From Marsupella aquatica (lineage: Eukaryota > Plantae > Marchantiophyta): 64,000 nucleotides of DNA. A model generated the notes under the pieces. The model had not been told where the DNA came from. It did no database searches and saw only the letters and a program-made list of their open reading frames with translations. The stretch lies in contig OZ316891.1 of assembly GCA_973895155.1 (NCBI GenBank), positions 27,317,561-27,381,560 on the forward strand. Direction: 5' to 3'. Of the stretch, positions 1 through 28,718 are shown piece by piece. The stretch's first letter is position 1, and each line of letters begins with the position of its first letter. The position numbers and the translations under genes are program-made.

Positions 1-319
1 ATAAAAAAGGAGGATAATGTGTTTACCATTGGAGCAAGATCTCCATATTCTTCAATTTGGGACTCTGGGTAAAATTCCATAATTTTGTCACCCAAATATT
101 GATCGGGTTCAAGTTGTTCCAGTGTTTCTTGATTGAGAAGATGACCAATAGAAGGGTTGTGCACAAATCTATGAAGAACACATTTGAATTCAATAACCTC
201 CTTTGATGGACCCTGCAAGGACATTATTGTCACATAAGAACATATAAATCTCTTTCAGTATTTTCGAAAGTTCATATACAATTTGGGGCAATCTCATTTG
301 CGACAACTATCTCAAATCT

Positions 320-874
320 CTACACCTCAAGGAATGAGCCAAGATCTAGTGGTGGAGCTTCTGCTTCCTCTTCCCCCTCCTCCTCCTCCTCATCAACATC
401 ATCATCATTCTCGGCCGCAGTTGTAATGATGCAAATTCTGGTGGTGAGAGTGCTCGTCATACCATCAATTGGTGGTTGTATCTCAAAACTCATCGGCCTT
501 GTACCCTCCTCAATTGCTTCCTCATTCAAGTCCCATGATTCATCCAACGTGACTAGTCGAGTCTGGATGCAGTCTATTTGCTGAGCACTCAACTCTACTG
601 CTGTCACATGTCGCTTTGCCAACAAAGCCCCACACGAAGTAGACCCACTTCCGGCACATAAATCAGCAATCCAATCTCCTTCACTAAAATGTTTGATAAA
701 CCAGTCTACGAGGGCTATCGGCTTTTGATACGGATTCACTACTTCCCCTAATGGTGTTACACATTTCTTGGTAACACAGGGTACCTTGATGATGTTGATT
801 CTTTTCTCATCATGCTCAAAATTATACATTTCCCTGGTCCTGATACCACCTTCATTATAGTATCCGATGGACAT
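320..874 (-). CDS. C-terminal half of a beta-class (N6_N4_Mtase-type) amino-methyltransferase domain plus acidic linker, part of copy A
   Basis: QKP-x-L motif followed by SAM-binding motif I 'IADLCAGSGST' and 'VTAVE'. No DPPY-like catalytic motif seen in this copy. Confidence 0.75.
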   Translation of the reverse strand: MSIGYYNEGGIRTREMYNFEHDEKRINIIKVPCVTKKCVTPLGEVVNPYQKPIALVDWFIKHFSEGDWIADLCAGSGSTSCGALLAKRHVTAVELSAQQIDCIQTRLVTLDESWDLNEEAIEEGTRPMSFEIQPPIDGMTSTLTTRICIITTAAENDDDVDEEEEEGEEEAEAPPLDLGSFLEV

Positions 875-892
875 GAATCAGCCAAAAACGAG

Positions 893-938
893 GGTTGAAT
901 CCCAAATGGGATACGCGTATCCCATTCGGTATTCAACC
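893..938. repeat. Single copy of the type-A palindrome, just inside a splice donor at ~961-965
   Basis: GTTGAATCCCAAATGGGATACGCGTATCCCATTCGGTATTCAAC. Confidence 0.85.
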
Positions 939-1154
939 TCTGGAATGCACGTTTGAACAACTTACCACATCCAAGAGTTTACCGCTCCATCTTTCAAGCT
1001 CCAAAGACTGCGTCTCCTTTGGAAACATTTGTTTACAGGTTGCCCAGTCTGGTTGGCCAAACAATTGTACAAAGAGTTTACTGATCTTCACAAGCTTCTT
1101 GTAACTTTCAGCCTCTTTTGCCATCTGCTCAAGATTAATCATTCTATCCTTGAC

Positions 1155-1907
1155 TCAAAGAAGAAGGGATTCCAAAAACCTGTCCTGCTCAATCCCTTGG
1201 ATCGCTCTCCAAGGCGTCAAAGCGAGCCCCCCTGCTAGCTTGTTCAAAGGTTTCACGACGGGTGTGGCCTTTTGCTTCCCTTTCTTCAGTATCTTCACCG
1301 AGGATTTTTGTTTGTTCTGCCCCTTTATCTCGAATCTATTCCACATGTCAAAGATCTGGTCTTGGAGGTCCCAAACTTTTCCAGATCTAAATAATATCTG
1401 AAAAAGAGGTTCGTGCTTCTTCAGTGTTTTCCCAACCCCTGGAATGAAGCCATCAAGACATACCTCCGACGCGCAGGCCTCTCGAGTCTCTTTTGTTTTT
1501 TGCATGCCTCTAGCAAGGAAGACCTTATGCATTGTTCGGATTTGATCAATATTGTTCATCTTTTTTCGATACTCCTGGTCAATATTGTGTTGAATACTGA
1601 GTTTTTGAACATCGTCCCTTGTAAGCCTTGCATAGACCCATGCTTGAAGTTCATTGAAGATTTCTCGACCATAAGCCTCAAACAGTTCTCTTTTAGCTCG
1701 CGCTCCATGATTACCCCCAATTACCCGATATCTCCAGGTCGATGCCTTGGCCGGGTCCCAATCTGCAACCGACGGACAATCTTCCGGAATAACAAACAAC
1801 ACAAATGGCATAGTGAAATTTGTTGGATTCAACTTCATCAAAGTTTTGATATTCTCCACGTGCAAACGATCAACAGTCCGAACCAACGTGGAGTTCTGAT
1901 CATTCAT
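1155..1907 (-). CDS. ParB/Sulfiredoxin-like domain, part of copy A
   Basis: 'RTVDRLHVENIKTLMK...PFVLFV...YRVIGGNHGARAKREL' matches the ParB/Srx pattern (y-x-I-x-G-x-HR-xx-A), with R replaced by G. Confidence 0.65.
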   Translation of the reverse strand: MNDQNSTLVRTVDRLHVENIKTLMKLNPTNFTMPFVLFVIPEDCPSVADWDPAKASTWRYRVIGGNHGARAKRELFEAYGREIFNELQAWVYARLTRDDVQKLSIQHNIDQEYRKKMNNIDQIRTMHKVFLARGMQKTKETREACASEVCLDGFIPGVGKTLKKHEPLFQILFRSGKVWDLQDQIFDMWNRFEIKGQNKQKSSVKILKKGKQKATPVVKPLNKLAGGLALTPWRAIQGIEQDRFLESLLL

Positions 1908-3024
1908 GTCATCGACCAGGAGGAGGTTTGTTGTTTTCAGAATGACGGTGGTCTTCTAAACTCTTTTTGTCTCCATTAAGTGAGACACTTCTTCCCTTAC
2001 AACCGACGTCTCTTCACGTTGCAGGGCCGTAGTCAGTTCATTTGTCGAATCTTCTTTCCTCTCGACAATCATTGGACCCTTCCCCTTGGATGTGACCGAT
2101 GGCCCACCTTGAGAAGTTGGAGGAATCTCACCTACCAATCTCAAAGGCGAAGGTGGAGCTGTTGACACAATGCTCGCAGGCGCAGACACAACTCTCTTTT
2201 GGATTTCTCGTCGATCCAACTTCGTCTTTGTTTTGGCAGGATCTTCTGAGATAGTTGCACCGAAATGTTCACCTGATTTTCCACCAGAGATATCTTGCGC
2301 TTTCTTCCTCTTTGTTGGCTCGAAGATTGCCTTCTCTTTTGTTGATGTTGTTTGGGAATCCTCCACCGTCCCAGAGGGATCCGTTGGCCTGTGTATCTTC
2401 AAGTTCAACAGAGTTCTCTCTGGGCACTTAAAGTCTTCTCCAACCACTGAACAATACTCAATTTTGGTGAAGTCCCGCACCACCTTCCAAGATGTTAAAG
2501 ACATAACTCAAACACCAGTACAAAAATGAATCCACATCAGGTGCCTCCGCCACAAGCTTGATAATCAAATCATCTGAAAATGTATTCATCGAGACTCGAT
2601 CAAGTTTTTCATAGTTTAGGACCAACACAGAAAACGTCTTGTCAAGACCAACACAAAGAAACATTGGCACCATCTTCACTTTCCTTGTTTTTGAGTCAAC
2701 AATGTCTACCTCGGCCGTGTCAATCACCAACCTTGGTGGCAATGCTCCTTACCCTTCACAACAATCAACCATAAGGCTGGGCCAGCATATGCTCTATGAA
2801 GATCAAGCTCACGAGCATCACGCAAATACCACTTATTCCCGAGGAATTTCTCCTCCGTATAGTGATCCTTTTTCCAGATTTCATCGATGATGGCTTGTCG
2901 GAAAGAGTCTGTGGAACCAGAAGCAATTGACTTGTTCGACATCTTGAAGAAAAGAAAACCACATATAAGAATTTCAAGCCTAATATGATCGAGGTCAAAG
3001 GTAGCAAGACCATAATAGTATGTC

Positions 3025-3513
3025 TGAATGCGAGATGGGATATGCCGTATCCCATCTTGTATTCAACGTTTCACTTTTCGCCTATTTTTTCTGAAAAGCC
3101 TAAGATCACTATGTTGAACACCAAGTGAGATACGCGGTATCCCACTTAGTATCCAATCACTCCTTTCCTGCTCTTTTGTTCAGAGATCTTCAGATTTGGG
3201 TGTTGAATGCCAAACGGGATACCGCGTATCCCACATTGGATTCACCCCCTTTATCGCGTTGAGGATTCAAAAACTCTTGAGATTTTCATGTTGAATGCGA
3301 AGTGGGATACGCGGTATCCCGCTTTGCATTCAACCTCCGTTCTCCATTCGTTTTCAATCTCAAAAGCAAATTTGGCCTAAGTGAATGTGAAGTGGGATAC
3401 GCGGTATCCCACTTCGCATTCAACCTCCGTTCTCCGTTTGTTTTCAATCTCAAAAGCGAATTTGGCCTAAGTGAATGCAAAGTGGGATACTGCGTATCCC
3501 CCTTCGTATTCAT
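3025..3513. repeat. Array of six ~45-bp type-A palindromes at an 88-90 bp period, inside the predicted 5'UTR intron of copy A
   Basis: Copies start near 3025, 3113, 3202, 3290, 3380, 3470. Consensus GTTGAATGCGAAGTGGGATAC-GCG-GTATCCCACTTCGCATTCAAC. Confidence 0.9.
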
Positions 3514-3550
3514 GTTACTAGTTTGATCCAAAAATTGAGGAGACGACATT

Positions 3551-3690
3551 CTCACCTGTAAATGGAACGTGAGCCGAGGGAATACGAATATCTATAGAGA
3601 TTGGGGATTGAGCAAGACATAGAGGTACCACGAGTGAGCAGAAATGAGCGTAATTTTTTGAGGAGGGCACTCTAATTTATACTTTCTCCT
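3551..3690 (-). promoter_or_regulatory. Putative TATA promoter and non-coding first exon of copy A
   Basis: Minus-strand GTATAAATTAG at ~3672-3682; donor AG|GTGAG at ~3552-3557; acceptor TTCTTTTCTTCAAG directly before the ATG at 2942. Confidence 0.55.
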
Positions 3691-3970
3691 CCTGAACAAG
3701 GCTAACTCCTAAGATTAGTTACAGGAAATAGTCGCGGCAAGGTCGAAGCAACTAGTCACGGCAAATAGTCGCAGCAAAGAGTTGGAAATATGGCAAAATT
3801 TATTATAGGTGCAATCCGATATGGGATACCCTTGTACAAATTCAATTGGCAACGAGATAGTAAATGAGTTTGTTACGAAATGCAACGAAAGATAGTAAAT
3901 CAATTCATGAAAAATAGTTTTACAAGGAGCTCAGGAGGAGCAGACCTAAACATGATTGAAAGAATGGGAA

Positions 3971-4525
3971 TCAAGCTAACCCTGAAGTTTCTCCATATAT
4001 TTCCACTAATCTGGCTTGCTGGTCTTTCTCTAGATTGAGCCAGTCCTCTTGAAATCGTCTTAGTTTTGATATCAAAAATAAGCCAAGGAAATCAATTGGG
4101 GGAAGATTTGGAGTTTCCATCCTAAAAACGTTTGCGAGATGAATATTCTGAAGTGTGTCTCCGTGAAGAACGCTAGCAAGCATTTCATTTAATCCCTCAA
4201 ACTGGCTTCGTGCTAGTCGAAGGAGACCCCATACTTGTGTACAAACTACAAGCTTGTTCCATTTCTTTGAAGTGGATCCAAGCCAAACCATTTTTTTTAA
4301 TCGTCCAAGTCTTTCTTCAGCTGAGATCTTGGAGGAATCAAATTCGTCCTCGATGCAAGACACTTTCAAAATGGGCCATATGTAAGTTTCAACAATTTCA
4401 TCAGGAAGTCCATCCAAAAGTAGTCCAAATTTGATTCGGCAACGTTTATGCTCAATTTGTTTCTTCTTCTCTTTCTCAAATAAGGTCACTAACCTCGCAA
4501 AGATTAGGTTCTCAAGGACGGCCAT
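3971..4525 (-). CDS. F-box-like protein (element cargo)
   Basis: 'LLDGLPDEIVETYIWPIL...LGSTSKKWNKLV' fits the F-box LPDE...L-x-x-x-(S/C)KxW pattern. Open 184-aa ORF. Confidence 0.55.
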   Translation of the reverse strand: MAVLENLIFARLVTLFEKEKKKQIEHKRCRIKFGLLLDGLPDEIVETYIWPILKVSCIEDEFDSSKISAEERLGRLKKMVWLGSTSKKWNKLVVCTQVWGLLRLARSQFEGLNEMLASVLHGDTLQNIHLANVFRMETPNLPPIDFLGLFLISKLRRFQEDWLNLEKDQQARLVEIYGETSGLA

Positions 4526-4730
4526 TCCAAATAGTTTGACAAGAAGGAAGGAATACCTGGAGTGATAGAAAATGGAGAAGTTCTGTTTTTGAAGAACCTA
4601 CAAAACAAGGATCAAAATATTTAATTTACTTTATTTATTTGATCAAAAGAAAAACATCATGTCGAAATCTTTGTGAGCCAAGAATACTGAACAAAACTCC
4701 AAATATTTGTGAGCAAAGAATCAAGAAGAT

Positions 4731-5087
4731 TCAATGGGAAGAGTTAACCCAAGGATCTTTGTTCCAAATCCGACAACACAAGTATGCCAATCGATGATAC
4801 TTATTTTGATCATCACGACAATAATTACACAAAGAATCGACATAATGCAGACAACCACTCAAAACAATTCTTGACCAAATTGGAACTCCTTGCTCATTCT
4901 TTTTGCAAAACTCAATTCGGAGCGGATTGAGACTATCTTGAGGATCTACGCCTCCCATCCAAAGCGCTCCTAATCCAACAGGAAGCACTTTGAGTTCAAT
5001 TAATCTCTTATACAATCGACAAGCACGTTTATCTCGGTTTTGAATCTGGACCGTCATTGAACTCACGGTTGAAAATATAAGTCTCAA
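4731..5087 (-). CDS. Small Cys-containing hypothetical protein (element cargo)
   Basis: 118-aa ORF downstream of a TATA/exon/intron module; no family recognised. Confidence 0.35.
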   Translation of the reverse strand: MRLIFSTVSSMTVQIQNRDKRACRLYKRLIELKVLPVGLGALWMGGVDPQDSLNPLRIEFCKKNEQGVPIWSRIVLSGCLHYVDSLCNYCRDDQNKYHRLAYLCCRIWNKDPWVNSSH

Positions 5088-5230
5088 AGAAAGCTAAAGC
5101 TTTAATAGTTCTTTACTCCAAAATGGCGGGCTCGAAGGAAGCAAGAGCTTTTGTCAAAATTGACCAGAACCTAGCCTGCAAAACCATCGCCGATACTTAA
5201 GATATCTTTTGCCATCGCCAAAAAGCTATT

Positions 5231-5937
5231 GCTGAATACCCAAAGGGCTACGCCGTATCCCACTTCGCATTCAAACTTCTCCTTTCGGACCTAACCTGAT
5301 TGATATTCAGAGGTTGAATACCATATGGCATATCAGGTATCCCACTTCGCATTCAACATTGAAATTTCCTTCATTTTTCAACCAAGAGCTTCTTATGCAG
5401 AGGTTGGATGCGAAGTGGGATACGCGGTATCCCACTTCGCATCCAACCTCTTTTTCTCATGTTTCGTCATGCCAAAACTGGATTTTTCAAGATTGAATCC
5501 CAAACCGGATACGCATCCTCGTGATTTCCAAAAAGATGTATTGCTCACCTATTTTTGTAGTCTGACTTGGGGGATATGAATATGCATATAGAGTGTGGAT
5601 TCGTCAGGAGCAAGCAAATGCGGGAGCAAGAAGAAATGAGCCAAAAAAATTGAGTCGGGGCTCTCCTATTTATAGTTTCCCTCGACCATGGTCAGTTTCT
5701 AACCATAGTTTCATCGTAGTCGATTAAAAGTGACCGTTGAAAGGAATCCTCAAGGAATATTCTTGACGGGTAAATCATACTCGCCCCTTTTACTGCGTTT
5801 GTTGGTTTTGTTTTTTTAAACTGCGATGGGATCCAAAATGGGATACGTCGTATCCCTGCTTTGGATTCAAGTCATTTTTTCCCATTTTAATAATCTAAAA
5901 TCTGGGTTATTAGAGGGAATACTAATTCCGTATCCAA
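5231..5937. repeat. Second cluster of type-A palindromes (about 6 copies, some degenerate)
   Basis: Copies near 5231, 5313, 5402 (GGTTGGATGCGAAGTGGGATACGCGGTATCCCACTTCGCATCCAACC, perfect arms), 5493, 5828, and degenerate ~5907. Confidence 0.85.
5544..5682 (-). promoter_or_regulatory. Second TATA and first-exon module, similar to 3551-3690
   Basis: Minus-strand CTATAAATAG at ~5666-5675; donor AG|GTGAG at ~5544-5549; shared blocks with 3551-3690 (gaata-c/t-gaatat, gagcaag, agaaatgagc). Confidence 0.55.
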
Positions 5938-5949
5938 CACTTTTTTGCC

Positions 5950-6390
5950 TTAGAATGTTTTTCCGCCGCGAGCATTTGAAACGAGAAGTGTGGTCACACT
6001 TCTCGTTTGATCCGTCACTATGTTTTCAGGGTTATCTCCGTGCAAAGAATCCAAATAGTCCAGTTTCCTAAGACCCATGTCGATGACGACCAGTGCCCAA
6101 TGGTTATGTCCCTCATGAATAGGGACCATGACCATCTCTACATCAGTTAAAATGTGCTCCAACTTTGAGGTCCAAGTTTGAACATCGTCATACTTATATC
6201 CACCTCAAGCAAGTTCCGAATAGAACCAAGTATCAAAAATATGAACCTGCGGGAGGTCGGTACCCGCGGATTCTGCTCTCGAAGCAATCAGACCAAAAGA
6301 AGCATTCAGAATTTCAGAAGTTATCCATCGCTCGGGACCTAAACATGCCATCTCGCGACGAGTTATGATGCATCCACTGATTGTCGACAA
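5950..6390 (-). CDS. Ulp1/SENP (peptidase C48) domain fragment, truncated before the catalytic Cys
   Basis: The His motif 'NHWALVVID' and the 'YLDSL' motif are present; the Q-x-N-xx-DCG motif is not found. Confidence 0.8.
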
Positions 6391-7392
6391 AACTAAATCC
6401 TAATCCATGTCAGGGTTGAGGCAAAAGTTTATCGCCACATCATCATTCAGGTTGAGAGAAGTGGGAAAGAGTGAATTGGCACCTGCCTCATTTGCAGGCT
6501 CCACTGCAAGTTCCACGGCAACATTATCGACATGTCCGATGACGGGCTCGACCTTGCATGGACCCTGATTTTCTGCCCAAGTGTGGGGAGGGGATGGATT
6601 GACGATGTTAACGGCCTCTTGAACTCCAGTGACAACCTAAAGGTAATCGGAAGGATCCTCAGACACAACCGGTGCAATATCATTTACAATTGAGTCCACC
6701 TCGCCAAATGACCCCACACGAGGCTCGCGTAGAGATAGAGGTATCCCACCGTCATTGTGTTCTTCCTCCACAAGAGGTCCTTTGGAACTCCCTAAGTGGT
6801 GGATCGGTCTTTGCGCCTCACCAAATTCCCATGGACGGCAAATTTGTTCCCCAACATTAATCATTCCAACACAAGGATCAGAAAATCTGTTATCGTCTTG
6901 ATGGGAAACTGTTCTAGTGACATGATAGTGCCTCCCTTCCTTTGCGCCACTTGCATTCGAGTTTTGCGTTGAGCTGCCCTCCCCTCCTGGAAGTTTCCAT
7001 AAGGATTTCACAAATTGTGCGACACCCTCCAACAACTTGAGATTCTCTGCATAAGCCATGAGGTCCATCACATCCCCCCTTTCCGAACAAAAAGAGAAAC
7101 ATTCCCTTTCCAGAAGAAGGGCATTCTTTCCTTGGAATGGGAACATTTTTATAATTTTTGGTTCCCCCGCGAAAAGCCCCACGGGGAGGGCAAACAGACA
7201 GACCAGAAGGCCAGACCAAGCGACATAAAACAAAGCCGAACACACAGCGCACAGGCACACATCACCAGCGCATATCCCACAGCCCCCCGACCACCAAACA
7301 GTGGAAAAGGGAAAATCAATCACCAACACAAGCCCAAGCCCAACATAAGAGGGCATTCAACAGTCAGATCATCCAGGAAGCCACGGTCCCCC

Positions 7393-10300
7393 TCAAGCAA
7401 AAGAATTGACAGCAATGCTGCCACTGCCTAGCCAAACCCTACGCAGGTCATCCATCCATGCCTTTGCCCGAATCAGGCGGGTGCACTTCCTGCCCGGGGG
7501 GCAGCGCCGACTAACAGCAAAAGCGTTCTCCGCTGCCTCATTCAGAACAAGTCCCAAGTCAAACACCCGTCTCCCCCCCACCTGAAACATGTGAGTGTTC
7601 CTTCCCGTCCAGAGTCGCCACAGAATATGGTGCAAGACGAAGATCCGGGCCACTTGCACAGGCTCCTTCCCGCAGGCCGCCTCTAAAAGAGCCATCAGAC
7701 CTCGTCCCATTGGGAAGCCCAGAATCTGCAACGAATCCTGACAGAGTAGCCAGCAACGGACCGCATGTGTACAGTGGAAGAACACGTGGGGGATCGTCTC
7801 CAGCCATCCTTTGCAAAGCTTGCAATCTCCATTACTCACCTCCATTCTGAGCGCACGTGCCCCAGTGAAAAGGCCCCCTACAATAATCCTCCACACAAAG
7901 GTCTTGCCTCTAATCGGAAGATCAGACCCCCAAAGCTTAGCCCAACACATATTCCAACGCATCTCAGGCCAGGACAGTGACCAGATCCGATTGAGGCGGT
8001 CATGGGATGCAGTCTTAGGCCTTAAGAAATCATACACTCTACAATTCTTGATTCTGAAGTCCTTCAGCGGCTCCGGTCTGTCTGTCCATCTCCACTGCTT
8101 GGCATACAAGTAGTATTCAGATCGGCAATTGTCTGCCCGCCAAAGGCACTCCAAGAACGAACGAGCCATCGTTCGATGCTCATCAGAAAAGCCACGCATA
8201 TTGTGCCATCGTAGCGGTAGGTCCTTCCAACATCCATCCTCCGTCGACCATCCATCACCAATAGACCTCAATCCCAGCCTGCCACAAATCGCAGCAATCT
8301 CTATGAGGGCTTTATTCGGAAGGGAATTGAAGCCCACCATACACCTGAGGGTATCCATGATGCTCCACCGGGAAGGTGGCCCCGTCCGCCCAGGATCGAA
8401 GAATAAGTGGGCTCTCACTAGCTCCCAGCTTCTCCAGAGACCTGTCGTGTAGGGGAGCCCACTAAATGAACGAGGCGTGCACAGTAGCAGCCGGTCCTGG
8501 AAGGAGTATCCATTTTGCCTAATAATTTTGTAGTTCGTCCACCCCATCAATTTCAGGTTGGCTGCCAACATCCTAGACCATTCCGTCTCAGGCGCGTTAA
8601 GTGCCTTAGTGAACCATTGAGAGAGTAATGCATCAGAGTGACTGCGGAAGTCCCGGAATCCCAGCCCCCCTTCCACACGTGGCAAAGCCATCCGATCCCA
8701 GGCCACCAGGGGGACCTTCCGTCCTCCAGTGGCATTATATCCCCATAAAAATTCCCTGCTCAGAGCAATCATCTTCTTCGCCAGGCCTACAGATGCCTTG
8801 CAATACATTACATGGTAGATCGGGATAGCAAGTAGTACCTGTTTGACCAGTAGTGAACGGCCAGTAAAAGAAAGAAGTTTGTTGGACCAAACAGAAAGTC
8901 TGGCACAAATCTTATCCAAACAGAATTTGTGCGGTTGTTCCGTGCTCAAACTCTCCCCAAAAGGTGCCCCCAGGTATTTCTGTATCTCGCCTCTTCGGCT
9001 GATAAGGCAGCCTGTGTTGTTCAGCCACTCTGGGATCCTTTCCAATGCCAATGGGATCACAACAGATTTCTTCAGATTCAGTCGCGCCCCACTAGCCATC
9101 TCATAGCATTCTAGAGCAGTGGTTGCTTCCTCAAAGGCACGCTCTGTGGCCGGGATAAACATCCCAACATCATCCGCAAACAGTCTATAGCAGATAGTGA
9201 ATCCAGGGGTGATCTGCAGTCCACAAAGTCGGCCCTCCGCCATCTCAATATCGAGAAAGTCCATAAGAGGTTGCGTGGAGATGACAAACAACAATGGTGA
9301 CAGTGGACAGCCCTGTCTTACCCCTCGTTTAAGCTCAAATGTGTTTGATAGTAATCCGTTCACCAAGGCCCTGGAAGATGCCTGTGCTAGCAGGGCCCTG
9401 ACCAGCATAGTGAAGCGTCCGCTGATGCCCAGTAGGTGCATGCATTCCCATAAGTAGTCATGTGAAACACGGTCAAAGGCCTTCTCGAAATCCAGTTTTA
9501 GGAACAATGCCTCTCTCCTCTTGTTGTGCACCCAGTCACATGTAAGCCAGGCTAAGGAAATATTTTCAAGAATGTGTCTTCCAGGTATAAATCCAGTCTG
9601 TTGCGGGCTAATAATCATGTGTAGAATCGGTTTGAGTCGTATAACGAGGATCTTGGCAATGAGCTTGTATATAGTATTTAACATTGTCAAAGGGCGCCAG
9701 TCCCTTAAAAACCGTTTATCAGGTTTCTTGGGTATGAACTTCACAATTCCTTCACAGATTCCAACGTCCAAAGCCCCCGTAAGCCAGAACTCCTGTATCA
9801 TATCCACCAGATCTTGCCCGAGAAACTCCTAGCATGCTCTGTAGACCTCAACTGTCATGCCATCCGGTCCCGGCGTTTTGTCACAAGGCAGGAGCCACAG
9901 CACCTCCTTCACCTCCTGGTATGACGGGAGTCTCTCCATCCTCAAATTCTCCGCTCCAGAGAGTGCAAACCTCGTGTTGCCAAGCAATCTGTCTCTGGCC
10001 ACACGAACCTCTTCCAACTCCGCTTCCAATCGCGGATCAGGCGAGTATAATGTTTGGCAGAACCTTTCTACCTCCTTCAGGATTTCTCCAGGGTCAGCTA
10101 CTGTACTCCCGTCCTCCCTATTCAGGGAAGGCATGGACTCACGAGATCGCTTAGCCCTCACTGTAGCAAAGAAAAACATTGTTGACTCGTCTCCTTCACT
10201 TAACCACTTAATTCTGGCTAGTCGTCGTCCTCTGTGTGCTTCCTCCAACTCTGAAGCATGTAGAGTATCTTCCGCGTCCATGAACTCTGCAATGTCTCCC

Positions 10301-11313: not shown

Positions 11314-11367
11314 CCTCCTACTATGCCAAAATTATATCCTGGCACAGCCACCCCCCATCCTTGCGTC

Positions 11368-14577: not shown

Positions 14578-14864
14578 CTCGGGGGGTTGACTATCAAAAA
14601 TCTTAGGAACCACGTGCGATCCAAAATAGGTATTTTTCATAGAAATTAGCTAAATTTTTAAAAAGTGTAGGAAGCAAAAGAAGGTATTATAGACCAATAT
14701 TTATAGAATATTCTCTAATATATACCTTTTATAAAGTAAAATAGGTCATTAATATTGAAAATATAGAATGTTTTTGGAATATTCCCATTATAAAATAGGT
14801 GTGTTTATATTAGGCTAGGATTGCACGTGGTACCCCAAAATATACACTAAGTTAACCCTCCGAG
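14578..14864. mobile_element. MITE copy 1 (287 bp, AT-rich interior)
   Basis: TIR CTCGGGGGGTTGACTA / TAAGTTAACCCTCCGAG; inner IR GGAACCACGTGCGATCC / GGATTGCACGTGGTACC; perfect 8-bp TSD GTCCAACA (14570-14577, 14865-14872). Confidence 0.92.
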
Positions 14865-16546
14865 GTCCAACACAATTTCCTCCTTCTCGGAAAATCGAAG
14901 AATGATTGCCTTGATAATTTTGTTGGGCTTAATGTTTGATGTAAATGTTCTGCCACCGGGGGTCCGGAAAGGAATGAGTCTATACAAGCGATCTCCAAGA
15001 GCGGATTTTTGCTTTGCTGCAACCTCTTCCTTGGAAAGGCCAGCATAATCTTCTTTGGCTGGTCTTGCTAGTTCAAGCTGATCAGCCAAGAAATGACCTT
15101 GAAACCCTCTGAAATGTTTTTCCCAATCTGGTTCTTGTTCCTGGGAGACTCCAAGAAAAACAATGGACTCAATAATACCCGACATGAAATGCGATGAGTG
15201 GACTTCTTTCGCACTCTTCCAATAGCTTCCATACTCCAAATGAGCATTATAACTAGAAGGTAGATCAGTGAAAGCTTCAATAATTCTGGCCAACAAGAGA
15301 CCTGGGTGCACGAAAAACACGATAGTCACCAAGTCGTTGGCGAGGACATTCACGACAGTCTTCAAGAAATTCAGCAGCTCCGATTGTGTCCAAGTATTTT
15401 GAATGAGTGTGTCATATCGACAATAGCAAGTGACGCATTAATCCTCTCCCTACAACTCGTCAAATCAAAAGGAGGCTCCGCGGAAGCAAGAAGATTCCCA
15501 GAGTAAAATATTCAATATGGATCCATTCTCTTGCGGACAGTTCCCCCAAATTTCTTTTGGTAAATATTCCGTAACCTATTCTTCAAAGGTTCTGGCATAT
15601 CGGATTTTGCAGAGACCTTGACTAAACTCTTGAAATAAGCATTGTCAACCATTGAGCAACATCGATCCAATTCTTCATTTGTGAAATTAAACTCGCGGAC
15701 CACATCCGACCAAACGGCCCCAACATTGAAAACACTTTCATAGGTCTCGTAGTAGAACCGCAAGATTGCACCTTTCAGCTTTTTAGTATACTTGGCTTTC
15801 ATGGCAAGATCGGACATTGAAGGTATATCTGTCCTTGCATGTCTTCTCTTCATCAAGAGAACCTCTCCCGATTGAACTTTATTCAAGATAGAGGTAATGT
15901 CAGATTCTTGCGCCCCCTCAAATACCCTGGATGTCGTCCCAGTAAGTTGTTTTGCTTCCCTCTTCTTCCCAGTCATCTCTCCATTGTTGTCAGGTAAACT
16001 ACCGGACAACCAACTATTGCAGACCGACATCCACAACTTATAGAGGCTCTCCAATGCGAAAAGGATCCAGTTCTATCCGCTGATGCTACTCACTTTCAGT
16101 GTGACTTTGGCCAACCCTTCGCAATCCTGAAACCCAACAACAAATGGTAAGAACAACACAGTAAACCAAACCTTTGGAGAAGGTATCTTAGAGCCAAGCC
16201 TTGGATTCTACACGAGGCTCGTGTGGACCACAAAAGAAATTATGGTGTCAACAAGAACGGACCTGGAATTCTTGGGATTTTTGCCTAGATGGCACTGGCC
16301 ACACTGGTCGATTCATTTCTGGATATTGCATTCTCGCATGCCTGACCTGGTCGATGAATGGTGATGAGAAACGATGTGCTTCAGCTTGCAAGTTGTTTGC
16401 ATGTGAAATCTCAACCAACACCTTAACAGGTGTCGACCCCTTGAGAATTCTTGCACGACGGAATTTGAGGAGGTTGGCAGTTTCAACCAAAGATGGCTGT
16501 GTCCGAGAACTCTGAATGATTTTCCTCGCGGCCATAGTTGAGTGTT

Positions 16547-16861
16547 CCTGGGAAAATATTTTTTATAATAAAAGGTGAGACCGCGAAAACCCCACGGCCG
16601 GGGGGAAGCAAACAGCCCCATAGATACATCAGAACAACTCCCTCAGGGAGGCCAGCGGCAAAAGCAAAGGCCAGAATCACAATAAAAAAAGAAAAAAGGG
16701 GGGACTAAACCTAGTGGCCCAAAATGTGAGTGACCCATACATCATGTCAACTTCTAGAGCCCTAGAGCCGGTAAAGCGAGGTATCCCATTCGACCTCTTC
16801 CAATAGCTATCACTCCTAGACCAGCAACGCAGCCACAGAGGTGACTCTGCCAGTACTCCTA
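16547..16861 (-). mobile_element. 5'-truncated LINE (3' end only, 315 bp)
   Basis: 16-bp TSD GCCATAGTTGAGTGTT (16531-16546, 16862-16877); carries the same 3' motif CCGCGAAAA(G)CCCCACGG as the LINE end at ~7167. Confidence 0.85.
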
Positions 16862-18986
16862 GCCATAGTTGAGTGTTGACCACTTATTGCAAAATATTGA
16901 TACTCGGATAATTGTTTAGAATCAAAATCTCTGACGGAAAGATCGATAAGACTGTAAACACCATTAATCATCTTGTAAGGCACCAAATCTACAGGCAAAG
17001 GTTCCTGACCGGCATTTAAAATCATCAACTGAACAAGATGGTTGACATGGTCTTCGTTGAGTAACCTCTCATTCATTTTTGCCGGCGAAGGATAGATATT
17101 CATCAAAGGAATGAGGAAAACTTTTGACAGCCCAAAAGAATACCAGCATCGGTTTTGCTACAAAGTCTTTTCTGCCCTCTCAAGTCTGGCTTGATCAACG
17201 ATTACTTTAGAACTCGAGTCAGCATTCATCTCTCCCATGTCATCCATGACATCCATCTCAATCATCTCCACTTTCTTACGTTGTTTCTTCGGGATTGGGA
17301 CACCGGTTTCCGATGCCTCTTCCATTCCCCCAGTCTCTCTTTTGCGGCCCCTTCCACGCTTGGACTTCTCCGATCTTGTCACCCCATGGTCTGTGGATAC
17401 GTTTTGCACTTGAGTATTGACCTTTTGAGATTTTGAGGGCACCTTCTGTTTCATGACAGCTGAAGGTGTTGCAGCGGAAGGTGTTGCAGCGGAAGGTGTT
17501 GCAGCGGAAGCCTTACGAGACAAATCCTTCTTAACGACACCTTTTGATACGGGTTTTGCTATCTCTTCCACAACTGCCTGCTTCTTTTGAGCCTTCTTCT
17601 TGACAGCCTTCTTCTGTTCTGGCATTTCGCCGCTTTAATCTTCTTCTGTGGTTGTTTGGACTTTGCGATCTGTGGCCCTTTCACCTCATTAGAGCTAGTG
17701 TGGATTTTTGCCTGAGGGACATTAGCTTTCCCAACCTTCTCTGGAAGAGCGATCTTTGAAGACAATCTCTTCTTCTTGGAAGGAGGAGTGTCTTCTTCCA
17801 TTCACTTTCTTTTCTTTTTCTTCTGCACCTCCATCTTAGTCTCAGAGTCCTTTTCCTCTTCAGCCTCTGAGCCTCCCACTTCCGCGAGTTCTTCATCCAC
17901 GGCTTGGATCTTATCTTCAAAGATCTCCTCTATTCCAACCAACTCAGGACTCAAAGAGTCACTGGGAACAATGCTTGGTTCATCTGATGTACCCTGTGAA
18001 CTTGATGATCTTGAATCTAAACTCGACGACGATCCAGGTTCCTATACAACTTTGCTTGCTTTGAGATTTGGGCCACCACCATGACATCCGTGCCTTTTCT
18101 GATTCAAATTGAAGGCCTTCACTACAGGATGGATTGCAACCCAACGTTTAATCCTTTCCTTGTCAACTAGATCTGGGAAAGCAATTTTTGGAACGATCTC
18201 GATCTCCTGCCGGAGTTCATCTTCCGGTAAAGATAGAGACATGACGTAAACAACATGCCTGGTTGCAAAAAGGTGAGATTGATAATCTTTGAAGAACAAA
18301 AAACTAACCCTTCCCAGCCCTGAAACAATATCCTCAGCAGTGAGAACATTATCTGGATCCATGAAACAATGAGTGGATGGATCAAAAAATCCTAAGGACG
18401 TTATGTTCATTGTCGCATCATTTGGCTCAAGACAATGTGCACAACAATATTGTTCAACGGGAAGAGAGAACTCTCTATATCCACAATTAACGCGGTCCTC
18501 CACCGTCACTGTCAGAAAGACCTTTCGCTTCTGGTGCTCTGGTGCTTTTGAAATCCTACAATCGGCAAGCACACCCAAGTACTTCCAAAACCTCTTGGGC
18601 TTGGCAATAACGATCCCCCGCAACCAACACCTCCAAGGATCACCCTCCATACGCATTTCAAAAGACCATGAATTGACGATTGGATTTTGGTGGCTAATAG
18701 TGCTTCGCTTAGCGGTTGCGGTAGGCACGGGTGGCTAAAACAAACATACGGGAATCCTAGGAAAGAACCAATATGGAAGATTTAGAATAGAGTCCAAGAT
18801 GTCAAAACAAATGCCGAGATTTTATTATTCACAAAAATGTACAATTCGTCCAGAAAACAACTCATTCGACCAAAATGGACTTTGCCCGCTCGACTACCAT
18901 CTTCTAAAGTTGGGGCACATATTGATCTGGGTGCCTCGATCTCCAACTAAACAACTCATCTAGTACTAAGTCTTGACAGATGAGTT

Positions 18987-19840
18987 CTAGGGAAATGTCT
19001 CCTAGGCTGCTTCCTTCTTCAGCCTCTTGATAGTCTGGAGGTGGCCTTCCTCCTGGGCCGTCATGATAATCAGCTTCTTTGTGAGCATCTATATCTGACT
19101 CTCACGGAGCTCATCAAGCTTGGTGGCCTGCTTCATCACTAGGCACAACTCTTGACATGTCTGAAGATGATTCCGCTGAGCTCGAAAATATCTTCCAGGA
19201 TAATCCTTTCTAATCGAACTAATCTCTTCATCTTTCTCCTTCATAGTTTCTCGCAGGGTCTCAAGTTCCTTGAGGACATCCTCAGTCATTTGGGACTCCT
19301 TCTCATATTTATCTTTGATCGATTTCAAATGTTTCAAGGCATTGTCGATTTGGCCTTCAAGGTAACAAATGAGCCTCAGGTGAGTAACATGCTCTACACA
19401 AGAGTCACGTGAAAGCAAATGGAAATGATATTTACTCCAACGGATTTTCGTACGGAAGCACTGATGGGATGAGGATCGTCCGGGATCTACACGAGAGTCG
19501 CGTGAAGATAGAGATAAAAAACGTCTAAAACTGATTCGGAGAAAAAAGATTGAGGGTTACCTTCAAGCATGATCTGCCCATTCATAGCATAGTACTGGAG
19601 ATCATCTACACGAGTCTTGTGTAGAAAACTTAGTACTGGGTATCGCATAACACAAATAAATCTAATAGGATAATGTCTACACGAGACTCATGTGGAAGGA
19701 ACCGCTGAAATTTGAAATAAAAACAAACAACGAAAAGAAAAACTAAAGATCTACACGACTGTCGTGTGTAAATACCTTCAACTCTGGTGAAAGCTGCGAC
19801 CGACATCTCCCGGACCTCCGATTCTGATAGATTTGCCATG
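18987..19840 (-). pseudogene. Multi-exon coiled-coil hypothetical gene
   Basis: TATA-like GGTATATATTTC at ~19978-19989; first exon 'MANLSESEVREMSVAAFTRVE'; heptad-like 'LKSIKDKYEKESQMTEDVLKELETLRETMKEKDEEI'. Exon structure is uncertain. Confidence 0.4.
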
Positions 19841-20413
19841 AAACCTCTTTGCACATGTGAAACAATTTGCAAAATATGGACGGAATTGAGCACAACTCAG
19901 AGGGAGAGACGAATGAGCGAAAGGGCGGAGAATGAGAGGGCAAAGATGAAGGAATGAGGGAATGAGCGAATCTCCTTGAAATATATACCTGACACAAGGA
20001 ATGGGCGAGCGTAAAAATGGGCCAGCGTGAAGCGTGAAGACATCATTAAGAGCGCCGCCAAAAATATCGACGAATCTTACCAGACGACAATCGTGTAGAG
20101 CTATCAGCCTATCACATTCGAGTAGATGTGCTTATTCTTTTGTCATTATCTGTTGTCATTGTCTGATATGATTAATTGCGCCACCAAAATATCGGAAAAT
20201 TGGACCACACAATGATCTAGCAGAGCGGCCACCCTATCATTTTTGTCCATTATATTCGGGATTTCTATCTGGGAATGGTATTTATTGATTAGTCGTCTTG
20301 ATTCTCTAGTCATTCTCTCGCCAGACATGAATGGTTCCGAGGACAGGTTTTGGCATGGGTTTGAGTCCAAGGACTGCTTTTGGGCGCCCAATCGGTACGT
20401 CCCTTCTGGGATT

Positions 20414-20475
20414 CCATTCCTGTGACTGTCTCATTCCTGTGACTGTCTCATTCCTGTGACTGTCTCATTCCTGTT
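20414..20475. repeat. 17-bp tandem repeat (CATTCCTGTGACTGTCT), about 3.5 copies
   Basis: Read directly from the sequence. Confidence 0.9.
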
Positions 20476-21181
20476 ACTCTTGGAGAATGTTTTTTTAGGA
20501 CAATTATCTGTACCTCATTTCTTTCAAAAGTTCTACTAAATAGGGGTACTGTAATAGCATATTTAGGATTTCAAAGAGGAATTAGACCTCATTTCTTCCA
20601 TAACTGCCCTAATTTTAGAGTTAGACTTCATTTCTTCTTTAGTCAATTGAGGACGATTGAGGGTCCTAACATGGGTTATGTCTTGGTCTTGAGGAATTGG
20701 ACTTCAATTGTAACACAATTTATCAGTTGGGTGGTTCCTTAATGTGATATTACATGGATTGGGGATTTGTACCCTGTTGGAATTTGTACACTGATGGACC
20801 TTTTACCCTATTGGAATTTGTACCTTGTTGGACTTTCCTTCTCTCTTAGAGTGAAGCATCAAATAATAGTGGGTCCTTTCCTTACTTCTTGTGGGATTTT
20901 TGTCATAAATGCATATGATTGTGATAATCCGGTTACTTTTGGGAGATGTTTAGACCTAAGCTGATGCTCTACACGAGGCTCGCCTAGCCATCGAACCTCC
21001 TTGTGTTTCCTTCCACTACCTGTATGTATTAATAATTCTACACAAGCCTCGTGTTGAGGGTTATCGATGTGCATGTTTTATTATGGTTAACTAGGTCTTT
21101 TCCTGCCGGTGAATAATTCCCGTCTTGTGTCCACACGAGAGTCGTGTTGAAGTTACTGTTAACCTCGAATCGGTCAAGAAT

Positions 21182-24100
21182 ATGTTTTTCCCTGGGGATC
21201 GAGTTAATCTCTTATTGAACGATGAACCGGTTGCAGGTGGGACGGTTTTCAGCATTACTCGCTCGGACTCTTGTCACAACATTCTGATTGGCGAGCATAG
21301 AATCAATGAACATTTTTGTTGAGGATGCATTCTTCCACCTTGCTGAGTTACCTTATCCAAACGCAGGGGCGGACCTGGTTGGTGAAAGCTTAAATTCAGT
21401 AATTTAGTGGGATCGGTCCAGAGTCAGGTTTGCGGAAAGCCAGCGCCCGGTTTATCCAGGTGACAACCAAGAGGAGATTCCTCTAGAACGAGAAGCAGGT
21501 TTTGGGGAGCAAGATGCCACGGGAGACACTGTCCATAGTCAGGACAATGTTCTCTTGAGCGAGGACCTGAGCGATCAAAGTAGGTGGTTCAAGAAGTTTG
21601 CTTTGCTTTACGGAGATGATGATGAGACACTACTGGCTCGAGGGTGTATCACAAATCCACACCCTCAAGCATCAATTAACAATGAGAGAGTTGGAGATGA
21701 TCATGTCGGGATCAATATTCTCACACTGGCCGCCGACAACATCTCAAAGATGACGTTCCCTTATTTTGTTGAGGGAACGCCTTGCACAATCAAATGGCCT
21801 TTGCGGAGAACTCGGATCGAGCCTGGAATGCAATTGTTAAGCGATCTATTGGATCAAAATGAATTCCTGAATCCCGAGCGATCAATTGTATCATATGTTA
21901 AACCAAAGCGAGGCTATAATAATCAACATTGCAACCCGCAGGCTCCTGAGGAGAAGGAAAGGAAGAATATTCATAGAAGGCGTAACAGAAAGAAGACTCG
22001 GGAATCTATTGATGTTGTCTTCCAGGTTGAGTGTTGCACAAAGAATTGTTGTAGGAAACAACAGTGGGAAGTGGTCAATCAGATTAGAGATGAATTTTAT
22101 GGTCTCTCTCACGCCGATCAACAGACGTACATTTTGAACCATCTACACGGGAGGGATACGGAAACTATAGAGGCCGGGATGATTATTTTCATGGGACACA
22201 TGTCTATAAAGAAGGGTTTTGGACCATCCATGGTTTCTCCAGAGGAACCTTCTATTCAATCTATAGTCACTATCAAAATGGGGCAAAAGTTGGCGTTCAT
22301 GGCAACCAAGGATCAATGAAAACCAAAGACTACATCACATTATTTGTGGAGTGTATACGAAGTGTATTCCAAAAATGTGCAGAGCCTATGCCTCATCTCC
22401 ATAAAATTGGAGAGTCTAGAAAGCAGGAGGTCGTGTATAGGGTTCCCATAAGCTACGAGAGGAAAGATGTTTATGAAGAGGCTTGTGAGCTTAACAAGAA
22501 TCTTGGAGCTTCTTCTCCTGTCATCACTACTTTCTACAAGATATTGGAGAAAAAGTTTCCCAATTTCCAATTTCCTGATCGAAGCAATTTTGCAAAATGC
22601 GATCTCTGTACTACAATCAAAGAGACTCTTCGAGGCAAGAAGAGACAAGATGTTGTTCTTGAAATCAAGGCCAAAAGAGAACGTCACATGCTGGAACAAC
22701 AGTCCCGGAGAAGCATGTATTATGCAGCCAAACTAGCAGTAGATCAAGAGCCAGAGAAGTATCTCTCGGTGATTCATGACAAAATGGATCAAGCCAAAAC
22801 AGGGATACCAAAAATGACTTTAACTCTTAAAAGTCAAGCGGGTAAATCAATTTCGTTATCGATGACGTTGACTGGAATGCTCACGCATGGATGGGATCCC
22901 AGAATCTATGCCCATTTTGCACTTGGTGGATTGTGGGCGAGTGATCCTGATTTCACAGTCTCATCTCTTTCAAAGTTGTTCAGGGATCTTGAGTCATTCT
23001 CTAGGGATAAGACTGGAGACTTATCGCCGAGGAGCACAGACATGTCTGATCCTATTTTTGTTGCGCTTTTAGATCGTCGGGCTTTTGAGATTGGCTATCT
23101 AGAAAGGAAGAATGTGGATTTTGACCATTTTAAAGGACTTGAAAACAAGGCTCGCGCGAGCCTCGCATGGAACCCTCATCCTCCAATTCTTTTTGACCAC
23201 TTCCATGCCATTTTCACCTCCAACTTGACAATTCAGGGAAGGACAATAAGAATCAGATCGTGATCGCATATTGTAGTGAGCTTGTTCTTTGAGGAGTGTT
23301 TGAGTCTGTTACACTCTCCTTCCTGATGGTTGGTCATACTCATGAGGACGTTGATGCATTCTTTTCACGAGTAGGAATTTGGATTTATAATCATGAGTTA
23401 ACAACTTTCTTTAGTTTGATGGTTGAAGTTTGGGAGTGTGAGAAGAAGCATCCAGTCCCAAGATTCATCCGTGAGGTTGCTGGATACAAAGCTTATGTTT
23501 CTTCTTATGTGAAGAAGATCCAAGGTCAGTTGGCCCCTGTGCAGTTCTTGTTTTCAATGAAAGAAAATACACCTATTTATCAATATCGGGAGAAAATTGA
23601 TTCGCCGTGGCTACCTGCAAAAGGTCACTCCATTTGGAAAACTACTGGAAAGGACTTTGTGTTTCCCTCCGAAAATCCTCTTTCAAAACAAATGGAGTCG
23701 ACTCATAAGCGAGCGAGTGGCATTCTCAAATACCTCGTTCATTACATTTCATGGCTAAAAGCCGCCTGGAAAGATGTCACATCAGAGGGATATCATTTTC
23801 GATCCCCGGAAATTGAGTATTGGGAAAATGTCATCAGGGTCTTCAAAGGTTCCCTATGCTCTGCGCCTAATCTAGAGAGGGACTATCTGCTACTCGATGG
23901 GTTTTGGCCAAGAACTAACCATGGAACCGGATATCGAGCTGAGGTTGGGATTTCTGAGAATAACATTGGCTCTATCAACAATGTCGTGGGCAGCCTTGAG
24001 CGTGAACTTCAGGAAGATCAATATGAGAGACAGACAATATTTGTTGGCCACCGCTCGGAGCAAGAAAGGTCAAGATTCTCCCCACTTGAGGATATTAAAA

Positions 24101-24471
24101 AGGATACGTTTGTTATTCTTCGTCCAACAGATAAATTTGAACAAATAGTTCCCCTTCGATTCTGGCTAGGAAGAGCCATGGATCGTGTTGTGTGGGTTCC
24201 AGATGATGCTCATGCTGGGGAGTTTGAGGCGGAATGGTGGAGACCTGTCCATCAAAAATTGTTTGTCCCAGACTCTGAACGATATCGGGATTGTTTCAAT
24301 TCTAAACAGTCCTGGGAAGTTGATCCAAATTACCAAAGTCCTACAATCCGACACGACTGGCTCCTCGCAACGTCTACAATCAATGGCTGGAATTCAAAGG
24401 CAAAGGGTAAAGTGAAAGTTCCAGGTCATGTTCTTGAAAGCGTGAATGCATACATTTCCGAGAACTTCTGA
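21182..24471 (+). pseudogene. Sola-like DD(E/D) DNA transposase, degraded
   Basis: CCxxxCC + 'IRDEFYGLS...QQTYIL'; 'KCDLC'; 'SVIHDKMDQAK'; 'HLQLDNSGKDNKN' (alternate frame ~23215-23253); 'SFLMVGHTHEDVDAFFS'. Frameshifts and TGA stops. The superfamily assignment is from recalled motifs. Confidence 0.7.
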
Positions 24472-24818
24472 ACGGAGTGTTTGTTTCTGCACGAGGCTCA
24501 CGTAGGGCCTCCTCATTTTGCCTTACCAAGGAAGGTTTAGGTTGACCATTTGGATCTGCACGAGGGTCGCGTAGAGTGGCCTCGCTTTGGTCTCTAGGCT
24601 AGGGTCTACTAAAAGCGACATGGCCGTAGACCCGGGATTCGCACGCTTTGGCCATTTCTTGGTCTTGTCCAAAAGGGAACTCCTCACTCTCTTTTCCCAT
24701 TCTGTGGTTTCTCATTCACTTTCAATCTGCTGTTGATGTTAGTTTTTGTCGTCATTTGATTTGTGTTAGTTTTCGTATTTCTTAATCTGATTTTGAGAGG
24801 ATCTCTTGAGTTCTTTCG

Positions 24819-25352
24819 ATGAATCCACCAGTGACGTCCAAGGACCTCGCCGTGACCAACAACTCAACAGAGGTTTCCCCGCCTCATAGCTCAAAGGAGG
24901 GGAACGCCCAAAGGAGGTCATCCAAGATTTACACGCCTGCGGATGGGTTTGACCGTAGTTGCAATTCTGACAAAGAAGGATCTTTTTTAAGAGAGTGTAC
25001 TCGATGTAAAAGGTTTTTCTTGTCAAAACTCGATGGAGATACCTGTGGCTTTCCCAATTGTAAGACACCTGGAGAATAAAAAATGGATGATTCAAAGATT
25101 AGCCGTGGAGGAAATTCCGTGCCGCCTATGGAGGGGCAGGAGGCATTGGGTACGAGGAAAGCCGGAAAGATGCCCAGGGAGACTGTGAACAAAAGACGCA
25201 TGAAGGAAAATGTCAATGTCTACTATGGGAAGGGAAAGAAGCAAAGGCGGGCTCCGATGGACCATCGAGCTTGGGCAAAGGAAGCTTTCCTTGACTGTCG
25301 TGAATCCACTCCGGACTCGGATGAGTGGATGTCATCTTCATGGAACGATTAA
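24819..25352 (+). CDS. Small hypothetical protein with CxxC...CxxxxC zinc-ribbon-like motif and basic tail (one in-frame stop)
   Basis: ORFs 24819-25079 and 25083-25352 are in the same frame; flanked by type-B palindromes. Confidence 0.35.
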
Positions 25353-25524
25353 GATTTGAAGCCATTTGGGAGAGTCTTAAGTTTTTGAAGCATTTTGAGG
25401 AAAACGCGAGTCTCGCGTAGATATTTGACTCCAGAAAATTTAGATTGTGTTCGCTCACTTTTGTTTCTGCTTTAAGCTGGTAAAGGAGATTTCCTTATCT
25501 GAATGCCCATGTCTCTATGGGCAT

Positions 25525-25665
25525 CTCATTATTTTCTTTAAATCAATGAGTGCACATCACTCTATACTATGATAAACCTCCGATTATTTTCTTTAAATTA
25601 GTGAGTGCAAATCACTCCATACCATGATAACCCTCAATACTTTCTTCGAATCAATGAGTGCACAC
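25525..25665. repeat. ~55-bp tandem repeat, about 2.5 copies
   Basis: ATTATTTTCTTTAAAT..TGAGTGCA.ATCACTC.ATAC.ATGATAA.CCTC repeated. Confidence 0.8.
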
Positions 25666-28700: not shown

Positions 28701-28718
28701 CATGTGCCAAGCTTGGAT

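Follow-up and report, generated by a model that had tools for sequence, protein, structure and literature searches.

We analysed a window of 64 000 nucleotides from the liverwort Marsupella aquatica (contig OZ316891.1, forward-strand positions 27,317,561 to 27,381,560; all positions below are those of the window). On balance, we think that it probably holds the DNA of a decayed giant Sola1-type transposon with two divergent ParB–methyltransferase genes, copy A and copy B, the latter fused in frame to an Ulp1-like domain, and that the intact proteins would have bound palindromes of their own element and marked it against silencing by the host. The initial annotation of this DNA had proposed a cut-and-paste element with a ParB–methyltransferase–Ulp1 fusion captured from prokaryotes; copy B bears out the fusion, whereas the module would be an old eukaryotic one. 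The palindromes, which that annotation overlooked, are the best mechanistic clue.

The three domains follow each other in copy B, the parts of which are

About 18728 to 5930, minus strand: copy B gene, three-domain order, interrupted by three insertions.
17158-18728, minus strand: N-terminal domain, then an acidic/basic linker; the translation has stops and one frameshift.
16263-17157, minus strand: ParB-like domain (AISGQHSTMAAR), broken by the tail of a long interspersed nuclear element (LINE).
16547-16861, minus strand: 3'-tail of a LINE inserted in the ParB motif, 315 bp, with a 16-bp duplication (16877-16862/16546-16531).
16262-16127, minus strand: 136-nucleotide GT-AG intron, phase 0, with a B-type palindrome (described below) at 16207-16227.
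15511-16126, minus strand: helical region, a weak profile match (E 0.0028).
14530-15510, minus strand: methyltransferase (AIVD, YWKS, NIKP, IVLD/FFIGG).
14578-14864: miniature inverted-repeat transposable element (MITE) inserted in motif I, 287 bp, flanked by an 8-bp duplication and bounded by inverted ends of 15 bp.
7130-14529, minus strand: full-length LINE insertion of 7.4 kb (ORF1, endonuclease and reverse transcriptase, by Pfam).
6400-7112, minus strand: end of the methyltransferase and linker, in the Ulp1 frame, with a B-type palindrome at 6713.
5930-6399, minus strand: Ulp1/SENP-like domain, in which the catalytic His and Asp are present, truncated at the junction with the copy A side before the catalytic Cys.

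The Ulp1 domain of copy B matches PF02902 (E 1.5e-12 and 5.5e-4), and its best PDB match is SENP1 (E 1.8e-6 and 1.6e-5; residues 3-119 of 205). No QxNxxDCG motif (the Gln/Cys part) was found downstream of it, the domain ending near 5930. From 7129 to 5950 a single frame leads from the methyltransferase into Ulp1 with three internal stops, where the two other frames have 24 and 18. Contig data from four runs and two organisms cover positions 1-7200 of the window, where 796-2621 variant contigs were found in each of the four runs; among the 40 best-supported differences, the stops at 6402 and 6207 are open codons in contigs from all four. We read the join as an in-frame fusion because the methyltransferase and Ulp1 share this single frame and because two of its three stops are missing from other copies. 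Direct support for the predicted three-domain protein comes from copy B alone.

The ParB-like piece of copy B matches the family profile with E 1.4e-5 and aligns to copy A with a z score of 5.9, and its methyltransferase piece scores 15.3 bits, a value reached by none of 300 shuffles. AIVD is the start of motif IV, with a frameshift immediately past the Asp, and motif I (IVLD/FFIGG) is interrupted by the MITE; motif IV precedes motif I, the beta-class order, in copy B as in its relatives. A Pfam search of the N-terminus (18045-18734) gave no match. Spliceosomal introns had been proposed for both genes. That at 16262-16127 is the single complete GT-AG intron clearly seen in copy B, whereas the other large gaps were rejected as introns, each having a target-site duplication: they are the LINE tail (16547-16861, which by eye resembles a LINE end), the MITE (14578-14864) and the LINE itself (7130-14529, with a 17-bp duplication at 14546-14530 and 7129-7113).

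The second gene, copy A, is very divergent from copy B in sequence and is cut by the edge of the window:

2942 down to the window start, minus strand: copy A gene, ParB-like domain and, after it, a beta-class methyltransferase of which the second half remains.
1956-2942, minus strand: N-terminal region and low-complexity linker, frameshifted (from the translation).
966-1955, minus strand: ParB-like domain (VIGGNHGARA) and helical region, 353.7 bits with the family profile.
878-965, minus strand: remnant intron, a GTAAGT donor without an acceptor, with an A-type palindrome at 893-938.
323-877, minus strand: second half of the methyltransferase (YQKP; DLCAGSGS, binding S-adenosylmethionine, SAM) and acidic linker, PF01555.
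213-325, minus strand: possible 113-nucleotide GT-AG intron, the removal of which would put the Ulp1-like piece in frame with the linker after the methyltransferase.
3-212, minus strand: possible start of an Ulp1-like domain, recognized by eye (LEPDQYLGDKIM...NTLSSFF) and truncated by the window edge.

The methyltransferase half of copy A (323-877) matches PF01555 with E 1.3e-5 and 25.7 bits, slightly below the cut-off of 26.7, scores 77.7 bits with the family profile and is also matched in tblastn by residues 654-762 of a complete relative, P0029. Residues 488-653 of P0029 have no counterpart in copy A by tblastn, so that the catalytic half with motif IV has been lost; the remnant intron is the site of the deletion that removed it. 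Other copies in the variant contigs carry an extra base at 2730 in the N-terminal region, an open codon in place of the stop at 1157, additional letters at 872 and another palindrome beside 893. The segment 213-325 is a possible intron, judged from its letters: a deep contig of run X1 agrees with the window over 3-116 and 319-544, and 204 different letters separate the two segments. Word-seeded protein searches with the ParB open reading frame (ORF) of copy A and the middle ORF of copy B returned no matches, PDB sequence searches with the former and with the family profile returned nothing significant, and the best PDB hits of the methyltransferase ORF of copy A (M.RsrI and M1.HpyAVI, E 0.3-0.4) are not significant. 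A Pfam scan of the window gave no ParB match.

A phmmer search with the ParB-like region of copy A (1158-1955) found 127 relatives (E up to 0.001), of which 29 were looked up. All 14 that carried an organism name are eukaryotic (four from Riccia, three from Chara, two each from Adiantum and Branchiostoma, and one each from Ginkgo, Haliotis and Exaiptasia). Phage matches are limited to the methyltransferase part, with 23-29% identity, and viral contigs searched with P0011 and prokaryote genomes searched with P0029 gave no relatives, these being searches for close relatives only. A recent phage origin was rejected: because every named ParB match is eukaryotic and phages match the methyltransferase alone, the ParB–methyltransferase module appears to be an old eukaryotic lineage and not a fresh phage capture.

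The fold was approached through P0029, the AlphaFold model of which has a predicted local distance difference test (pLDDT) score of 76.7. Its residues 522-764 resemble beta-class N6-adenine (N6A) methyltransferases (M.BceJIV, Z 20.2, root-mean-square deviation, rmsd, 4.1, 218 aligned; CcrM, 19.8), with Z 17-20 to M.BceJIV, CcrM, M.MboIIA and M.PvuII overall. Its N-terminus resembles the ParB/Srx superfamily: PadC (Z 9.3, rmsd 3.2, 98 aligned), SerK (7.9) and sulfiredoxin (7.5). KorB matches with Z 8.1 (rmsd 9.7, 133 aligned) over model residues 105-434, reaching the helical region. A Z below 8 may reflect a common arrangement; here four of the next rows all belong to the ParB/Srx superfamily. 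The ParB/Srx and N6/N4 methyltransferase identities first suggested thus stand on profile and fold matches, the fold being that predicted for P0029 and carried to copies A and B by their matches to the family profile. The conserved residues of the ParB core are R131, G187, G188, H190, A194, H231 and N232.

The family alignment holds 108 rows (102 of the 127 relatives and six window pieces), with PF01555 in seven and HTH_ParB in one; among the 38 longer relatives scanned, PF01555 is present in six. Relatives with the catalytic half read DFPY, DLPY, DAPY or DPPY (D-x-P-Y), and the combination of ParB with a D-x-P-Y methyltransferase is found in Chara, Riccia, a fern and Ginkgo. Intact (D/N/S)PP(Y/F) and FxGxG motifs are absent from the window copies, and P0029 and P0014 are among the relatives that have them. 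A ParB core tree took in 64 rows covering 130 or more core residues, plus the copy B exon, and left out shorter matches. It groups copy A, with support, with rows from Chara, Riccia, Adiantum and Ginkgo, separate from the animal rows, and copy B is a long branch without an assignable position. Proteins of abalone, lancelet and sea anemone (P0062, P0093, P0116 and P0133) contain the same ParB-like domain with no methyltransferase detected; the abalone protein, near-identical among four species, also shows a weak match to Tudor, and this may mean domestication. An atlas pairs the copy A ParB ORF (1158-1955) with fungal DUF3723 clusters (0.96). DUF3723, a typical Starship gene (PMC10175614, seen in part), may be an unrecognized ParB-like domain.

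That the two genes are domesticated host genes lying among transposons, akin to DN4MT1 of Marchantia, is highly improbable. Land plants have indeed kept a bacterial-type N4-cytosine (N4C) methyltransferase (bioRxiv 2021.02.12.428880, available in part). Yet both copies are pseudogenes, apparently multi-copy, and one of the palindromic motifs is common to gene and transposase region. Kinship with DN4MT1 was rejected on the catalytic motif, which is TSPPY in the Marchantia enzyme and D-x-P-Y in the relatives, that of copy B beginning with Asp.

Copy B is divergently oriented with respect to a transposase gene:

About 21152-24471, plus strand: decayed Sola1-type transposase (HDKMDQ, LDNSGKDNKN, GHTHEDVD), with frameshifts and stops, PF25273.

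The head-to-head arrangement with a Sola-like transposase was correctly recognized at the outset. The plus-strand gene matches PF25273 (DUF7869) with E 4.9e-19, it has eight relatives, its three acidic motifs are conserved in an alignment with relatives, and the relative P0001 covers it at 35-55%; the nearest named relatives are from Riccia sorocarpa. The label Sola1 is a putative one, given on the motifs (DDD with Sola-type motifs). The ParB and amino-methyltransferase gene thus lies on the strand opposite the transposase, which is the layout of the Ectocarpus element discussed below.

Two different palindromes, an A-type of 41 bp and a B-type of 21 bp, are each confined to the territory of their own gene. 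In addition to the sites within the genes, they form the following groups:

3025-3512: six A-type 41-bp palindromes, spaced by 88-90 bp, upstream of gene A.
5233-5868: second A-type array (5233, 5315, 5405, degenerate at 5494 and 5828).
19393-20099: B-type array upstream of copy B (19393, 19486, 19605, 19676, 19750, degenerate at 20079).
20968-21150: three B-type palindromes immediately upstream of the transposase.
24486-25421: B-type palindromes (24486, 24555 and 25401) around two small ORFs, 25401 being the last motif of the element.

Between 6713 and 25421 there are 14 B-type palindromes. Arrays precede gene A, the small ORFs, copy B and the transposase, and also follow the transposase; moreover, one palindrome lies inside the intron of each gene, A-type in copy A and B-type in copy B. 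The B-type motif has 13 matches, whereas 30 shuffles give 0.13 on average; for the A-type core the numbers are 11 and 1.9; one A-core match outside the element, at 37613, is chance-like. Weight matrices trained on these sites are informative only elsewhere: the A-type matrix scores no higher than 0.6 beyond 5940, and scores of the B-type matrix do not exceed 5.9 below position 5940, 8.5 within the LINE and 11.7 past 25530. CA or TG stands at six of the 26 CpG positions of the B-type sites, as expected after silencing by host 5-methylcytosine (5mC). Since the B-type motif flanks the transposase and also lies within gene B, the two would form one element.

The same B-type sites on both sides of the transposase would also suit another role, in which the palindromes are transposase-binding or structural repeats and the ParB–methyltransferase protein works independently of them. 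Internal repeats bound by the transposase are common in DNA transposons. We nevertheless judge this role unlikely: the sites run throughout the interior, before every gene and within introns, and not just near an end; the palindrome type switches exactly where the type of ParB gene switches; and in red algae inverted-repeat arrays accompany a ParB gene (bioRxiv 10.1101/2025.02.11.637652, available in part).

The switch of palindrome type falls where the Ulp1 domain of copy B breaks off, at about 5930-5950. Copies A and B are therefore most simply read as two families joined near this point. Contigs in the junction zone are mixed: some cross it and at least one leaves at 5934. A hairpin with 14-bp arms lies close by, at 5979-6008 within the Ulp1 region of copy B, and other copies lack four bases at 5975. 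At the far side, a perfect hairpin (25503-25524) and three tandem repeats of 53-55 bp (25503-25688) stand just past the last B-type palindrome and may be the right end of the element. Neither hairpin was accepted as a proven terminus, no partner having been found for either; the left end is either beyond the window or lost.

Several results weigh against the interpretation that we favour, the first of them concerning the protease. Peptidase_C48 (Ulp1) is found in none of the 38 longer relatives scanned and in none of the 108 alignment rows. The same three-domain order had been described for both genes; it holds for copy B, whereas the terminal piece of copy A (3-212) has no match in Pfam, PDB or BLASTP searches and shows a weak likeness to the start of the copy B Ulp1 (z 2.9, p 0.035), so that an Ulp1 domain in copy A is suggested and not proven. 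These points, like the end of the copy B domain before its catalytic Cys, would fit a capture by one family or an accidental chimera between decayed elements, the three-domain protein then not being general. We find such an origin of the Ulp1 piece quite improbable, as about 390 codons of copy B lie in one frame without a frameshift, its Ulp1 region recurs in many variant contigs of all four runs with two of the stops missing, and the deep contig preserves the linker and Ulp1-like piece of copy A at equal spacing.

A second group of results concerns the methyltransferase. Motif IV of copy B is broken and its SAM-binding DFFIGG deviates from DxFxGxG, so that family B may have been inactive, and the copy B methyltransferase ORF did not match the whole alignment in a profile–profile test (probability 1%). 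The protein could then have been a sequence-specific regulator or chromatin tether, its methyltransferase inactive at least in family B and its output deSUMOylation or binding. The degenerate motif I of copy B speaks for this, together with the animal and several plant relatives that have ParB without a detected methyltransferase and the inactive transposon-borne methyltransferases known from DIRS1 elements (PMC4738411, seen in part). It is an improbable account all the same: D-x-P-Y and FxGxG-type motifs are kept in Chara, fern and other relatives, copy A retains DLCAGSGS and many of the short relatives are gene-calling fragments.

The remaining objections concern the ParB-like domain and the element itself. 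The single-sequence model of the copy A ParB ORF has a pLDDT of 32, the support for the fold coming from P0029, and the family motif GGxHxxxA lacks GxxR, which we take to be the pattern of CTP-binding ParB proteins; the arginine pattern differs. Within the window, neither a pair of terminal inverted repeats nor a target-site duplication of the element was found. A metagenome scan with P0001 returned two loci with identical matches, apparently one locus in two assemblies, with a decayed and distant transposase, and its 10-kb flanks contain no ParB–methyltransferase.

Taking these points together, we still favour a self-marking Sola1-type element. The window displays its anatomy; binding, marking and deSUMOylation are what we infer from knowledge of the families and from the co-location of motifs and genes. 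By analogy with bacterial ParB and KorB on parS or operators, the ParB-like domain and helical region would dimerize on the palindrome. The methyltransferase, judging from the D-x-P-Y of relatives, would then write N6-methyladenine (6mA) near the promoters of the element, and the Ulp1 domain would remove SUMO from chromatin or silencing proteins close by, such that the transposase and cargo stay expressed. A and B would have started as two families, each with its own pair of protein and motif, and been joined near 5930-5950 by nesting or recombination. Both ParB–methyltransferase genes and the transposase are dead, through stops and frameshifts, the loss of the catalytic half of copy A and the insertions in copy B, and the window copy is itself incapable of the proposed binding, marking and deSUMOylation. 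We also put forward, tentatively and as a possibility only, a broader idea: giant transposons of streptophytes may possess a eukaryotic parS–ParB system, in which the ParB of each family would load on the palindrome of that family, spread along the element and bring with it, as a single chain, a 6mA writer and a SUMO protease, protein and motif co-evolving within every family.

Small ORFs lie around the genes:

3971-4597, minus strand: cargo ORF, F-box-like by eye only, no Pfam or PDB match.
4731-5093, minus strand: small cysteine-rich cargo ORF.
19089-19556, minus strand: coiled-coil ORF, a separate cargo gene or the first exon of copy B, with generic coiled-coil Pfam matches only.
24810-25079 and 25080-25352: two small ORFs between B-type palindromes.

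The F-box-like and Zn-ribbon labels given earlier to such cargo found no database match. Among the cargo of plant DNA transposons, Ulp1 is common. The window is otherwise rich in repeats, with LINEs, a long terminal repeat (LTR) element and a TrkH-family transporter gene. Next to the transposon, a separate element (25700-27240) is rich in ACGTCG/GACGT repeats around an ORF at 26129-26566 that is BRCT-like by eye and has no match in a Pfam search. An LTR relic on the minus strand (28500-35500) contains a reverse transcriptase (30570-31628), an integrase (29201-29638), a PHD finger (28546-28770) and, upstream of the reverse transcriptase, a piece of a C5 cytosine methyltransferase (32118-32843; PF00145, E 1.7e-11); retroelement-borne C5 methylases are known from charophytes and other eukaryotes. 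The MITE family of copy B has three copies in the window (14578-14864, 37767-38046 and 49340-49495), with 15-bp inverted ends and an 8-bp duplication, and a second LINE (40461-46420) is about 66% identical to that in gene B. A host gene for a TrkH/HKT-type cation transporter lies on the minus strand at 51897-55035.

The core design is known from algae (the sources cited here and below were available in part). The closest description is that of Sola1-1_Ec32 from Ectocarpus (PMC12477816), a giant Sola1 element of 21.5 kb in which a 1104-residue protein with ParB and an N4C/N6A methyltransferase is encoded opposite the transposase and self-marking is proposed; its transposase has its best match in a Physcomitrella Sola1. 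That element is brown algal, with a single such gene, a two-domain protein, and known termini and 4-bp duplication; the available text mentions neither Ulp1 nor palindrome arrays, and the likeness drawn here is one of layout. Plavaka elements of Bostrychia and other red algae (PAG2/PAG3; bioRxiv 10.1101/2025.02.11.637652) have accessory genes for a PF01555 methyltransferase and a ParB-like protein, with tandem inverted-repeat arrays beside the ParB gene and self-binding proposed. They differ in their EnSpm/Plavaka transposase and in having ParB–2-oxoglutarate oxygenase and methyltransferase–SET in separate genes, and Ulp1 goes unmentioned in the available part. In the VANDAL elements of eudicots (Mutator), the accessory protein VANC likewise acts on its own element via family-specific motif arrays, as cited in bioRxiv 10.1101/2025.02.11.637652, PMC12730594 and PMC13547354; it has an unrelated, MAIN-like fold and removes 5mC, whereas here an amino-methyl mark would likely be added and SUMO removed. 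DN4MT1 of Marchantia and N4CMT of bdelloids (PDB entries 8s9m-o) show the same beta-class fold in eukaryotes as host genes; the accessible part of bioRxiv 2021.02.12.428880 gives TSPPY (N4C) for DN4MT1 and does not mention ParB. With bacterial ParB/KorB and parS/operators the window shares a predicted ParB/Srx fold followed by a helical region, and arrayed palindromic sites; unlike these and the phage ParB–methylase loci, it has no ParA, a GGxH motif, introns and no prokaryote among the 14 named matches. Eukaryotic ParB-linked methylases described together with such phage loci (PMC4738411, in the part seen) belong to another group.

The architecture had been thought undescribed. For the protease fusion this stands, as a literature search, with subscription papers and Repbase outside its scope, found no ParB–methyltransferase–Ulp1 fusion and no land-plant report; ParB–methyltransferase on Sola1 and self-marking, by contrast, are published (PMC12477816, as far as available). 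What is new is the land plant, the protease fusion and two gene–motif pairs side by side. The window is a relic and its core design has been described before. If our interpretation is right, plant transposons from Chara to Ginkgo would recognize and chemically mark their own DNA in bacterial style, and this lineage would have gained a SUMO protease as well; the idea proposed for algae would reach land plants and give them a local source of 6mA. In vitro tests of the matched pairs of protein and motif would be possible, and the pairs might find further use as targeted epigenetic writers. Under the broader, tentative idea of a parS–ParB system, the two pairs lying side by side would allow a test by swapping specificities, and would represent a second, independent kind of sequence-specific anti-silencing after VANC.

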